Shown here: piece by piece, positions 49,413 through 53,359 of the stretch
Layout of the letters: each line of letters begins with the position of its first letter
How positions within the stretch are numbered: the first letter of the stretch is position 1
Source: Lophium mytilinum
Taxonomy: Eukaryota
Direction of reading: 5' to 3'
DNA length: 64,000 bases
NCBI GenBank assembly: GCA_010093605.1
Contig: MU004204.1
Span: 18,959-82,958 of the forward strand
Translations under genes and position numbers: made by a program
The notes under the pieces: generated by a model
Told to the model about the DNA's origin: nothing
What the model saw: the letters and a program-made list of their open reading frames with translations, nothing else
Databases searched by the model: none

Positions 49413-50362
49413 TTACACAGGGTTGATGGGATCCAGTTCGTCGCCCGTCTGTATTTTCCAAGCAGCGTTCAACGGCACTACATGATATGCCGTTGGTGAT
49501 ACAGTAACTTTCTCCGGCACTACATCTTGTCCAACAACCTCCATGTTCTTCCAGTCCGTCCATTCGTGGCATCCGATACGCTTCACGTCGTCGTTATTGA
49601 CACCATCACACGGTGGCTGTATCGAGTTGCTTTTACTACCGTATGCGACGATGCGTAGCTGTGTACCTGTGAGATCCGCGTCCCAGGGAAACTTATTGTT
49701 GCGCTGCAGATACAACGCCGAGGCCATGATCTCGCCGCAGTTGCCGTGGGTTCTGTGAAGGTTCGAGTTCACCTCATCGCTTGCATCAGGGAAGTATTCC
49801 GCGCGACAGGCAGCCAACGCTCGGGTAAGGGTTTGATCGTCGTTTTCTAGGAGGACATTGGGCTCATTCCTCTTCGCTGTGCTCGAGATGTAGATTTCCT
49901 TGCCGATCGCGATCGCCGATATCATCTGGGCGCTGTTTAGCTGAGGTTGATCAGAGAAGGGGGGGTGTGGCAGGTCACCTACATTTGGTATATTGTTCGT
50001 AATGAACTTTTTCTGCTTTCCTGAGCATGAGTTTGCCCATTGTGCGTGTACTATCGGTAACTCCGCCCATGCTACGCAGGCGTATTAGGTTCTGCACTGA
50101 GAAAGAATTTGGTAAAGCATCTACCTTGCTGCGCAATGCCCGCAATCTGCTCGAGGCTGAAGGTGCTGGTATCTGCTTCGTACTCAAGAACGGTGGTGTA
50201 AAGAATGAATTGAATCTGGTCTTTCGTGGGACCTGTGCGTGTGATTGGATTCAGCGCAAACTTGAGGTCAGTCGTGTAGCCAGGCGCTATAACAGCAAGG
50301 ACGGTCTCGAGAAATATAAAAGAACAGACAACCAAAGAACGAAGGTGGTAGGATAGCATCAT
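49413..50362 (-). CDS. Secreted 279-aa protein with a deaminase-like zinc motif, 3 exons
   Basis: Exons 50,362-50,125, 50,071-49,983 and 49,925-49,413 join in frame across GT-AG introns. Signal-peptide-like N-terminus; HRTHGNCGE...IVAYG...PPC-x12-C. Confidence 0.75.
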
Positions 50363-51426
50363 GCTCCTGATTCTCCGCGTGAAAACGGACTATAATGTAA
50401 AAGATGGGATTGATGGCATAGTCGGAGTCCCCTGAAGTAATATATACTACTGCTATCCATCAGATCAAATTCCAGGGATGTATTCAGCGCTCAACATCTA
50501 AGATTCGAGCCCCTTGCGGAGGAGTGCGAAAATTTCATTTTGTTCTGGTTAATAATAAGTGACTAGGGCGGTGTTGGTGTTTCGCAACGGGGCTGCGGTT
50601 CTCTGCATGTCCCTCTTACGTGCACGGTTTATACGAGGGTGAAAATAAGTATCCTAATTTCCGATCTGCCCACAAATCGATCGAACGGCTGACCTCCAAG
50701 GGTCTTGCATCCAGTTCGAGAGACTTAGGCGAATGGCCCCAAGAAGAATATGGAGTCTACTATTCTTAACAGGTAAAACACGGTATACGAGGGCTGAGTA
50801 TTGTTGTGCAAATCCTATCGTCCCGCAAGTAAGCTTGAAAAGTATTACACGTCGGATGTCGAAACGCACTAGCTGGACATCTATTATTCGAATGCGGCTC
50901 CTAACTCGTTAACAGCCTTGTTGGTAGCGCCAGTAATAGTTCTTTGAGGCTGCGCCACAGTGAGCGAAGTCCGTGATGTCGGTGGGGGCCGAAAGGAAAA
51001 TCCCTAGAACCATCAAACGATTGTCGATTCCATCAAGAAAAGTTGCAAAATCATGAAGACGGCCTTGCTCTAGAAGTTTAGCCACTCTTCATGAAGTTTC
51101 AGCTCGTTGTTGTGGTGTTCTGAGGGATAGAAGAATTCCAACAGCGACACGACAGGCTTCGCCTACTGTGGCGCCACCGCTCCGGGCCAGGAACAGTGCA
51201 GCCTCCCCTGTCGACGATCCTCTGATGTAACCACCACCCAGGACAAGCATCTCAGTTGGTGTTGGTATACTGCTGACTTCTGGGACAAGATATGGACCGT
51301 TCATTTCAGTTCCTGCTATATTACGTGAAGACCGCAATTTGAAGCAGATGTGCTCTTACGCCTTGCTCTGTCCATCACCTTCTCTTCTCAAATTTCTGCT
51401 ATACGCTCGTGTTGTCGCTAGCCATA

Positions 51427-53359
51427 ATGGCTTTCTCGAGGCTTGCCCGTTGGGCTTTTTTGTGTCCAATACTACCAGCCGTCTTTGCGCACCCCCTCGA
51501 TAGCCAAGCCTTCGAACTTATGGCTCGTGATGGCCTTCCCAACACCGACTTCAGCTGGGTGAAGAGCTTTGTTGCTTTGGGAGATAGCTATGCGGCAGGA
51601 ATTGGAATCGGCGAGCTCACAGGAGACTCAGACGCGTCAGCCTGCAGCCGCTACACGGGCGCATATGGCTTGAAAATGAAGGATATCATTCAACCGAATA
51701 GCTTCCAGTTTCTTGCCTGCTCGGGCGACCTGGGCAAAGACGTTGTCTCGAAACAACTTCCGAAGCTTCAGCCGGTGTATTTCTCCCTGACCCCAGCGCA
51801 ACATGACCTTATCACCGTGTCTGCAGGAGGAAATGATGTGGGATTCTCAGATGTACTTGAGGCTTGCCTTTTCTTACCAAAGCCGGTATGTGTGTAGAGC
51901 AAACGTCTGTAATCCAGCCTACTGATCTATGTCACAGCCATCAGCCTGCACTGATGCACTTACGGCAGCTGAAACCTTCATCGACACCAACCTCCAAAGT
52001 GTCGTTGTCTCGCTTTTGAATGCTCTCGAACCGCGTGTAACGAATAACGGCGCCATTGTGTACACACTATACGGCAAATTCTTCAACGAGACCCCGGACC
52101 CGTGCAATTCACAGGAGTGGTGCTTCTTGAACCCAACTGTCAGCGGCTGCCAGAAAGTGACTGTCGAATTGCGCCAGGAGTTCAACCGCCTGGTCGGCAA
52201 GACAAACGACAGGATCGTTGATACCATCACCCAGTGGAACGGCCAAAAGAACTTCAAGAAGGCGTACCCGGCACATTGGGGAGGTATCGCCATGGGAATG
52301 GGGGGCCAATTCTGCAACCCCGACTCTGCAGATCTCGTCACGGATCACAGCAACGACGGGCTGGCATTCATCCGGCCCAGCATCAATCAGAACTTCGACA
52401 TTCCGGGCGAAAAGCGTGATTTCGATCTTGACAACGAGACCATCGGCTACGGTTGGAAGCGTGACGGCGGTATAATACCCGATGCGATATTGCAAAACTT
52501 CCATCCTACCGACCTGGGAGCCTGGATTCAAGCCTCCACGGCGCTCGACATGGTGGCTCAGCACTGGGCTGACTTCAACAACATGGGCGGTCCAGACGAC
52601 AGCGAGGCATGCAATATGGACTTTAACGCTGACTCCAATTCAACTAGTTATACCTGTGCAGTTGAGTAAGGATCTCTGAAGACCTAAAACATGGAAGATA
52701 TACTGACATCAAACAGAGTGGATGATCGCACTGGCACTAGCTGTTCATGCACGCCACAAGGATGCCAGGTCGGAACCAGCGGGTGTTTCGCAGTTGTCAT
52801 GACGAAGGGACAGGATGGATGTGATGATTCTTGCAACGGGTGTCAAGTGCCTGCTCAGGCTCAGCCGAGTGCGACAACTGCCGCTCCAGCACCAGCACCA
52901 TCAACTCCAGCCCCCAGCCCAGTGGACGACCCCAACAGGCCACAGAATCTCATATGCTATGGCCCAGGCACGCCAAACAGCCTCATCTCGTTCGATCGAA
53001 GCACTGCTACAGACCCCATTAGCAAGTTCTGCAACGCCTGGATTGGCGATGCGGAGTACTCAGTCACTCATACTGGCAGCGCGCAGTTCTTCCCGCTTGA
53101 CGGCAAAATCCAAGATGACTCTACGGATTTGTTGCAGATTGAGGGTACCGTGAAGGATTACGACTCGGCCAAGGGAGGAAGTTCTGATGAGACGGCTGCC
53201 ACGATAGCAGCCTGCATTGCGGGACTGATGGCCATTATGGATAGCTGTGACACGACTACTACCTCTGCTAAATGGGGTGGCGTTGGGTTATGGCATGGCC
53301 AGCAGTTGAGTCTGGCTGGAGACACAAAAGCGACGACGCTACCGGTTGGAGAGAAATAG
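51427..53359 (+). CDS. Secreted SGNH/GDSL hydrolase with Cys-rich module, Pro/Thr linker and C-terminal domain, ~609 aa, 3 exons
   Basis: Signal peptide; ALGDSYAAG, LACSG, VSAGGNDVG, FHP. Introns 51,886-51,937 and 52,666-52,716 keep the frame. Confidence 0.88.

Follow-up and report, generated by a model that had tools for sequence, protein, structure and literature searches.

Why should a fungus keep a deaminase-like protein and an SGNH hydrolase, both apparently made for export, head to head in its genome, and do the two act together? The question is raised by a 64,000-nucleotide stretch of the Lophium mytilinum genome (GenBank assembly GCA_010093605.1, contig MU004204.1, positions 18,959 to 82,958 of the forward strand), which is referred to here as the window and is numbered from its first letter. 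In models rebuilt from the DNA, gene A (49413-50362, minus strand) and gene B (51427-53359, plus strand) are divergent and both spliced, with 1,064 bp between their ATGs. The product of gene A has 279 residues when read from its first ATG; it is identical to P0001, a 'hypothetical protein' annotated from the second ATG (278 residues), and the product of gene B is identical to P0003, a 609-residue 'SGNH hydrolase', both entries being on a 342,419-bp contig of L. mytilinum. A first-pass annotation, made from the letters alone, had described two divergent genes about 1.06 kb apart at these positions, and had suggested that their products might form a two-component toxin. The gene pair itself is upheld by the open reading frames, by spliced contigs and by the identities with P0001 and P0003.

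The answer that emerges is graded. At the level of sequence and structural modelling, A belongs to a new, sizeable and catalytically complete-looking family of ascomycete deaminases, one in which the spacing of the zinc site is non-canonical and for which an esterase is the conserved partner. As to what the two proteins do together, a tentative reading is offered, i.e. that they are deployed outside the cell against other organisms, and this has to be weighed with several alternatives.

Gene A and its family

The N-termini of A and B are both hydrophobic; in the structural model of A residues 2-20 form a helix, and in homologues of A, too, the N-terminus is hydrophobic, with a conserved PGY-T motif after it. 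These features agree with the signal peptides that the first-pass annotation had assigned to both proteins, although the assignment is a reading of the sequence itself, made with no predictor. About 255 residues of A follow the signal-peptide-like N-terminus. The deaminase-like metal motif that had been pointed out in A is present, as HRTHGNCGE...PPC-x12-GC, and its catalytic/zinc-site stretch is encoded at 49569-49757 on the minus strand, where it reads H165-R-T-H-G-N-C171-G-E173, followed by P213-C214 and then by G226-C227.

Searching 1.84 billion representative sequences with HMMER and a two-sequence profile gives an A family of 130 clusters at 50% identity (E<=0.001), with matches at <=1e-10 for 31/130 and at <=1e-30 for 10/130. 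The named members are all ascomycetes, namely Dothideomycetes, Aspergillus and a lichen fungus. All 130 hits were aligned to the family profile with no pre-filter, and conservation was counted over those sequences that cover the site. On this basis C171 and E173 are invariant (both 105/105), as is C214 (95/95), while P213 (85/95), C227 (79/82), H165 (102/106) and S123 (112/113) are close to it. The family can be described by the signature H-[RK]-x3-[AG]-x-C-[GA]-E ... P-C-x(7-34)-G-C. Gene A matches no Pfam family, a word-indexed protein search with it returned only A and one homologue at 35% identity, and PDB sequence searches with A (A1 and the alignment A2) gave nothing relevant. Metagenome scans for further A loci produced 117 pattern matches with the two-sequence alignment and 146 with P0014, none of which was confirmed in either case.

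The closer homologues of A also conserve a motif in the C-terminal tail, [ED]-[LV]-D-P-I (residues 271-275 of P0001), in a region where the model is disordered (pLDDT <50). It is possible that this is a docking or sorting motif.

Predicted fold of A

The fold of A was modelled with AlphaFold2 on a 91-sequence alignment, giving a pLDDT of 86.2 and a pTM of 0.85. The model has helices at residues 69-92, 172-184 and 227-233 and strands at 109-115, 118-123, 199-204 and 254-256, which together form a core matching the three-layer alpha/beta/alpha arrangement in the order helix 1-strand 1-strand 2-helix 2-strand 3-helix 3-strand 4. C171-G-E173 is at the start of helix 2 (172-184); two further Cys follow strand 3, in P213-C214 and G226-C227, the second of them at the start of helix 3 (227-233).

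When the model was compared with 48,161 chains by VIA-align, a method independent of Foldseek, zinc-dependent base, nucleoside and nucleotide deaminases occupied 21 of the top 22 rows, which span blasticidin S, cytidine, guanine, dCMP, cytosine, TadA/ADAT and RibD deaminases. First among them is the blasticidin S deaminase (BSD) 3oj6 (Z 8.1, root-mean-square deviation 3.1 Å, 105 of 134 residues aligned), and six BSD entries, at Z 8.1-8.3, emerged when the Foldseek list was re-examined, values of about 8 being at the edge of the range in which VIA-align can be trusted. Type VI secretion system (T6SS) and DddA-type toxin deaminases come lower in the list, at Z 2.5-4.5. In the ESM Atlas, A retrieves clusters of fungal 'hypothetical' proteins with 152, 219 and 102 members, and a structural row labelled 'YwqJ-related putative deaminase' at TM 0.47/0.63, which is a lead only. 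The deaminase fold is accepted less for the Z score than because the structural list is so uniform and the invariant residues fall where the fold has its zinc ligands and catalytic Glu. The small protein thus models as a deaminase, as the first-pass annotation had supposed it should, and A is placed by modelling in the CDA-fold zinc deaminase superfamily, with zinc binding and deamination as predicted properties.

The best structural matches of A are BSDs and tetrameric cytidine deaminases (3oj6, 2z3h, 1wn6, 3b8f, 3dmo), with root-mean-square deviations of about 3 Å; the aligned residues make up more than 80% of the BSD chain, and the zinc ligands, predicted ones in A, are three Cys in both. 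There are clear differences, however, in that the BSD/CDA proteins are cytosolic enzymes of about 130 residues with a PCxxCR motif and a strand-5 Glu, whereas A is twice as long, of secreted type, has large inserts and shares only 13-16% identity with them.

Relation of A to known deaminase clades

In its motifs A resembles the YwqJ clade, of which it is a candidate member. According to the available text of Iyer 2011 (PMC3239186), the traits of that clade are G-x-[CH]-x-E, an insert before the Cys pair and frequent truncation after helix 3/strand 4. In the A family the residue two before C171 is G in 47/105 and A in 48/105 sequences (P0001 has G-N-C-G-E); H165 lies between strand 118-123 and helix 172-184, at least 8 residues run from strand 199-204 to P213, and the model is without helix 4 or strand 5. 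Both A and the YwqJ-clade toxins (PF14431) would be exported CDA-fold zinc deaminases with a small-x-C-x-E motif in helix 2, an insert before the Cys pair and truncation after helix 3/strand 4. When A2 is compared with 25 Streptomyces PF14431 domains by hhalign, the C-x-E and P-C motifs fall into register in an alignment of 59 columns, but with weak support (E 0.0022).

The two also differ. A has C-x(7-34)-C in place of C-x-x-C, and PF14431 matches 0/91 A-family members at E<=1; the same model recovers its own family in 149/151 Streptomycetaceae genomes and in the B. subtilis control. YwqJ toxins form the C-terminal tip of a large toxin, whereas A is free-standing, with a signal-peptide-like N-terminus and an N-terminal alpha/beta region of its own; nor was an immunity gene seen with A. 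The available part of Iyer 2011 (PMC3239186) reports YwqJ- and OTT_1508-clade deaminases from fungi, the former from basidiomycetes, whereas the A family is ascomycete; neither the A family nor secretion is reported there.

The defining motifs of two other clades are lacking in A. Table 1 of Iyer 2011 (PMC3239186) gives the CDD/CDA and BSD clade a PCxxCR motif in helix 3, a Glu at the end of strand 5 and three-Cys zinc ligation; A departs from this in its Cys spacing of 7-34 and in the lack of strand 5 in the model, and dCMP_cyt_deam_1 (PF00383) matches 0/91 A-family members. The fungal OTT_1508-like deaminases (PF14441), for which the same table lists GxxK before the Cys pair, likewise match 0/91, and in a 14-sequence alignment of A there is no conserved GxxK ahead of P-C.

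A separate observation concerns the comparison family. In the Streptomycetaceae genomes sampled, the PF14431 domain (149/151) is mostly single-copy, with about 80% column identity among 25 domains, a pattern that looks more like that of a core gene than that of a variable toxin. PF14431 is described as a polymorphic-toxin domain.

Gene B

Gene B shows the catalytic blocks of an SGNH hydrolase, with G52-D53-S54, G100 and H342 nearly invariant and G134-G135-N136 invariant among 44 homologues. The PF13472 (Lipase_GDSL_2) model scores 31.5-32.4 bits on P0003, just below its cut-off of 32.9, and is above the cut-off in the orthologues P0004, P0005, P0138 and P0139. With a B-family profile, the PDB matches include a Streptomyces phospholipase A1 (4hyq, E 2.7e-38; 7.7e-16 with the single B sequence) and a Streptomyces rimosus lipase (5mal, E 4.7e-36). 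The S. albidoflavus phospholipase A1 (4hyq) and the S. rimosus lipase align with the first half of the B catalytic domain, and GDS, G, GGND and H are all kept. On sequence grounds B is therefore placed with the SGNH esterases of the Streptomyces phospholipase A1/lipase kind; it is of secreted type and its catalytic blocks are intact, its activity being predicted. Unlike the actinobacterial lipases, B adds a family-specific insert of about 130 residues, a Cys-rich stretch and a C-terminal module, and its orthologues add lectin or GH71 domains.

The accessory parts that the first-pass annotation had ascribed to B are all there: the catalytic domain is followed by a Cys-rich stretch, in which about 40 residues include 8 Cys, by a Pro/Ala/Ser/Thr linker and by the C-terminal module, which is about 140 residues long. 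For the module of the Lophium protein no Pfam family was found, and BLASTP against the lectin domain of the Polyplosphaeria fusca orthologue was empty; a home-made hidden Markov model of 7 orthologue lectin domains matches it marginally, at the expected place (E 0.028). The ESM Atlas gives weak Gnk2-like rows for it, and a single-sequence AlphaFold model has a pLDDT of 38 and is unusable.

In other fungi the architecture of B varies. Fungal_lectin_2 (PF18647) is matched in the orthologues P0138, P0005, P0140, P0144, P0146, P0149 and P0151, and this alpha-galactosyl-binding domain is carried by B orthologues of P. fusca, M. phaeospora and several lichen fungi. The Lophiotrema nucula orthologue, P0004, has an N-terminal GH71 alpha-1,3-glucanase, the SGNH domain and four Cys-rich repeats (LC.F.C..G.CP..C), i.e. 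it fuses a fungal-wall glucanase to the esterase, and the Lindgomyces orthologue consists of the SGNH domain alone. Given these architectures, the esterase appears to be the constant part of B and the variable parts look like surface-targeting modules.

Conservation of the pairing

The evidence for linkage comprises organism, contig and consecutive GenBank accessions in the protein collection, with the Lophium pair, adjacent in the window, as the control; outside Lophium this gives the neighbourhood of A and B, not their orientation. In L. mytilinum (Mytilinidiales) A is KAF2488265 and B is KAF2488266, on the 342,419-bp contig. The same relation is seen in three Pleosporales, namely Lophiotrema nucula (A KAF2116939, B KAF2116938; 1,262,772-bp contig), Polyplosphaeria fusca (A KAF2735137, B KAF2735138; 208,785-bp contig) and Lindgomyces ingoldianus (A KAF2464583, B KAF2464582; 539,180-bp contig). 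Accessions are therefore consecutive in 4/4 named species that have A and a close B homologue, across two orders, and the three best non-self matches of B are the B proteins of the three linked Pleosporales (52% identity each). Members of both families are also found together on two further contigs, P0018 with P0149 (8,473 bp) and P0032 with P0153 (25,588 bp). Both pairs are much more diverged; P0032 belongs to a distant part of the A-family tree and matches the profile at E 7e-12, and the B protein on its contig shares 34% identity.

The recurrence of the pairing in other genomes is beyond chance, and the linkage of homologues elsewhere, on which the earlier proposal depended, is found. Because the pairing is conserved, functional coupling of A and B, of some kind, is judged somewhat better than an even bet. 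Between the same species A shares 32-43% identity and B 52%, so that A diverges the faster of the two.

Possible functions of the pair

The reading preferred here, to which a probability of about 0.4 is given, is that A and B form an extracellular antagonism module, i.e. two co-deployed enzymes used against other organisms. It is put forward because both proteins are apparently secreted, because A has traits of a toxin clade and diverges faster, because B orthologues carry modules that look surface-targeting, and because there is a precedent in slime moulds. The pair would be co-inherited and probably co-regulated, and would act outside the cell in conflict with other organisms. The accessory modules (the lectin in most orthologues, GH71 in Lophiotrema, the C-terminal module in Lophium) may carry B to a foreign surface, where it would hydrolyse ester-linked lipid or wall components. 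A would supply the second co-deployed activity, as a predicted zinc deaminase with motifs most like those of YwqJ-type bacterial toxins, and may deaminate a base in nucleic acid or in the nucleotides of the damaged target; the producer would owe its protection simply to the entry of A into the secretory pathway as it is made.

Bacteria are well known to secrete deaminase toxins. Full-text literature searches, outside whose range lie most subscription journals and supplements, found neither a fungal SGNH-plus-deaminase system nor a secreted fungal deaminase family, in agreement with the earlier statement that none had been described. The accessible text of Krishnan 2018 (PMC5889660) calls the animal and dictyostelid deaminases unique among eukaryotic deaminases in being secreted, and describes slime mould secreted deaminases that are clustered with MAC-perforin membrane-attack genes. 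These SNADs and dictyostelid proteins are like A in being eukaryotic, in having signal peptides and extra Cys and in their proposed extracellular action. They differ in that they belong to an AID/APOBEC-like clade within the helix-4 division and occur in animals and slime moulds, not in fungi; at the Tieghemostelium locus, where secreted deaminases and MAC-perforin genes occur together, the partner is a pore former and not an SGNH esterase (Krishnan 2018, PMC5889660).

A further comparison, with Kluyveromyces lactis zymocin and related yeast killer toxins, is one of concept, in that a secreted fungal toxin combines a wall-acting part with a part that attacks nucleic acid. The zymocin alpha subunit is a chitinase. 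Zymocin is plasmid-encoded, forms a covalently linked complex and has an anticodon nuclease as its payload and a chitinase as its helper; no homology of it to A or B appeared in the searches made. Its gamma-toxin is mentioned in the available text of Zhang 2012.

Several results weigh against the antagonism reading, and are best considered with the alternatives that they favour. The best placed of these, though itself rather doubtful, is that A is an extracellular deaminase of small molecules (cytosine-, cytidine- or guanine-type compounds, or a nucleoside antibiotic) that serves nitrogen scavenging or detoxification, the latter being what blasticidin S deaminase achieves within cells, and is not delivered into other cells. 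B would then be an esterase regulated together with A, as part of one extracellular response. The closest solved structures act on free nucleosides and nucleoside antibiotics and are not nucleic-acid editors, the best being the BSDs (Z 8.1-8.3 over 105 residues) together with cytidine and guanine deaminases, and the available text of Iyer 2011 (PMC3239186) attributes three-Cys zinc ligation to the CDD/CDA and BSD clade. Mature A has an isoelectric point (pI) of 5.0; the family median is 6.15, and 21/91 members exceed pI 8. A is, moreover, a single catalytic domain with no translocation or receptor-binding module visible, and conserved adjacency is compatible with any shared regulation. Against the small-molecule alternative stand the absence of PCxxCR and of the strand-5 Glu, with the wide Cys spacing and the lack of strand 5 in the model, the failure of dCMP_cyt_deam_1 to match any of the 91 members, and the lectin and GH71 domains on B orthologues, which point to a cell surface rather than to a soluble substrate. 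The faster divergence of A also fits a conflict protein, though a detoxifying enzyme could look alike.

The first-pass idea of a two-component toxin survives in part, since the genetic linkage and the deaminase fold hold, whereas a nucleic-acid toxin has several results against it. In its strict form, in which a lectin- or GH71-guided SGNH phospholipase/esterase would dock on and breach the envelope of a rival fungus or bacterium and admit a deaminase that mutates or inactivates its DNA, RNA or nucleotide pool, the binary toxin is considered unlikely. A role for A as a nucleic-acid toxin is disfavoured because of the small-molecule-deaminase structures, the acidic pI and the lack of a visible translocation module. 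An acidic protein such as A is unlike most nucleic-acid-binding toxins.

It is also conceivable, though quite unlikely, that A and B are functionally unrelated, their adjacency being kept by a very short bidirectional promoter or reflecting a block that is still unbroken. Divergent pairs are common, and two genes for secreted proteins in this arrangement are nothing unusual per se; the ends of the contigs that carry the two genes are 157 bp apart, and a short shared promoter could by itself keep A and B together. Linkage is seen for 6/19 A-family proteins with a retrievable location, and for 12/19 the 83 matches (word index, 334-1066-residue window) include no B homologue that shares their organism or contig. 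In Piccolia ochrophora A-like and B-like proteins are on different contigs, and the four linked named species all belong to one subclass, Pleosporomycetidae. It counts against the antagonism reading, too, that the pairing was not found in bacteria, an A-like open reading frame occurring within 10 kb in 0/80 actinobacterial SGNH loci (best E 0.75). From those loci 27 regular-expression candidates had been taken up and were rejected, all of them resembling non-coding frames.

The lack of any functional relation is hard to reconcile with adjacency in 4/4 species of two orders in spite of a changing B architecture (a GH71 fusion, lectin with an extra domain, SGNH alone), and with the two further contigs bearing much more diverged pairs, one of them with an A from a distant clade. 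Gene order matters here too: according to the accessible text of Ohm 2012, distant Dothideomycetes keep the gene content of chromosomes and mostly not order or orientation, and gene order is thus generally lost at such distances. The same text reports many small conserved blocks, 'most likely selected', the reason being unknown. Because gene order is mostly lost while many blocks persist, the adjacency of A and B is meaningful yet is no proof of joint function.

Other points bear on the deaminase assignment, and through it on the antagonism reading. Foldseek against the PDB gave nothing at E<=0.001, with a BSD at rank 16, and the VIA-align Z scores lie at the margin already described. No deaminase family of Pfam and no NCBIfam deaminase model matched any of the full-length A-family members (0/91 in both cases), and the hhalign comparison of A2 with PF14431 has a probability of 12.8%. 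In the 79 sequences with both Cys of the pair the spacing is 7-34 residues, and the canonical C-x-x-C (spacing 2) never occurs. That A is a non-enzymatic deaminase-fold scaffold or zinc-stabilised secreted protein, its Cys and Glu being structural or used in binding, is nonetheless highly improbable, since in spite of the missing profile matches, the non-canonical spacing and the existence of non-deaminases with a deaminase-like fold (available text of Iyer 2011, PMC3239186), the proton-shuttle Glu two after the first Cys (105/105) and the P-C Cys (95/95) are both at positions that the fold requires, and inactive deaminase paralogues typically lose the Glu, e.g. Tad3 (Table 1 of the same source).

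Gene models, transcripts and neighbourhood

Transcript evidence comes from one public sequencing run that matches the stretch (X1), whose label as RNA is a guess, and the use made of it is confined to spliced joints and to what its contigs bridge. All four coding introns are spliced out in X1 contigs, with GT..AG ends on the respective gene strand. Because of the spliced joints, the contigs can be taken to derive from processed RNA, and both genes to have been transcribed in that sample.

On the minus strand, exon 1 of the gene A coding sequence (50125-50362; supported by the open reading frame and by identity with P0001) encodes the N-terminus, which resembles a signal peptide, and the first part of the N-terminal alpha/beta region. 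It is followed by intron 1 (50072-50124, 53 nt), removed in an X1 contig by a joint from 50071 to 50125 with CT..AC ends, and by exon 2 (49983-50071), which is supported by the open reading frame, P0001 and X1 contigs. Intron 2 (49926-49982, 57 nt) is in frame and stop-free, and loose contig ends at 49925 and 49983 carry the letters of the neighbouring exon. Exon 3 with the stop codon (49413-49925) encodes residues 109-278 of P0001, most of the deaminase core, and an X1 contig spans 49348-49925 and joins 49983. The 19 residues of intron 2 are left out of the P0001 annotation, and the X1 contigs represent the spliced form; were the intron retained, it would insert these 19 residues ahead of strand 1 of the deaminase core. 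Upstream, the leader of gene A (50363-50985, minus strand) is represented by an X1 contig over 50125-50813 and 50869-50985, which contains 7 upstream ATGs and from which a 55-nt leader intron (50814-50868, minus strand) with CT..AC ends has been spliced out.

Gene B, on the plus strand, has a leader in a contig that starts at 51143 (51143-51426; 3 upstream ATGs). Exon 1 (51427-51885) encodes the signal-peptide-like N-terminus and SGNH blocks I-III (GDS 52-54, G100, GGND 134-137), exon 2 (51938-52665) the second half of the SGNH domain, which includes H342, the His of block V, and an insert specific to the family, and exon 3 (52717-53359) the 8-Cys stretch, the linker and the C-terminal module. 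The intervening introns 1 (51886-51937, 52 nt) and 2 (52666-52716, 51 nt) are both bridged by contig joints with GT..AG ends, and both are absent from one 2,123-nt X1 contig. The long leaders with upstream ATGs in both genes, and the spliced leader intron of A, may reflect translational control.

A divergent promoter of about 1.06 kb, as first described, holds as the distance between the ATGs, but the contigs of both genes enter the spacer and leave a gap of 157 bp between their ends (50986-51142), which is a candidate core of a shared bidirectional promoter; the contig ends at 50985 and 51143 are not the same as mapped transcript starts. Over 50932-51253 the spacer is also covered in X1 by other contigs, of much higher depth and with a few mismatches, whose loose ends (50956, 51053, 51170 and 51172) lead off into sequence unrelated to it. 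It seems, therefore, that about 120-220 bp of the spacer have an expressed look-alike elsewhere in the genome. Within the window there is no second copy of the spacer, and it contains no Rfam family and no tRNA; a 71-residue open reading frame in it (51089-51304, minus strand) has no Pfam match.

Genes A and B are each present in one copy in the window, and their neighbours, an F-box gene on the A side and a repetitive Ser/Thr/Gly-rich open reading frame, give no sign of a larger cluster. The F-box-like gene (47607-48977, plus strand) encodes 456 residues and matches PF12937 at E 1.7e-07. The repetitive frame (55066-57516, minus strand) is open for 816 residues, is rich in Ser, Thr, Gly and Pro and has long near-identical internal repeats, e.g. 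...GGSTVALEI.VPSSAVNIQ.GSSTITAA...; it matches no Pfam family and has the appearance of a wall or surface protein. Positions 1-12000 of the window form an AT-rich block (GC 17-31%) that has the appearance either of an AT isochore or of a repeat-degraded region, the remainder being gene-dense with 49-58% GC.

Wider implications

The A family comprises 130 clusters that are undetected by Pfam and NCBIfam, and is tied to a specific partner gene across two fungal orders. If A and B prove to be merely co-regulated, they would still be a clean, testable case of selection on a block of two genes where gene order is otherwise scrambled. Were the binary toxin to hold, it would be the first secreted fungal deaminase toxin with a helper of its own, and new base-editing enzymes, with a zinc site of non-canonical form, could be drawn from it. 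If instead A and B are an antagonism module, or A a detoxifying enzyme, A would provide a new deaminase scaffold to try on DNA, RNA and nucleosides, and the pair may represent a fungal weapon of a new kind or an antibiotic-detoxifying system of a new kind.

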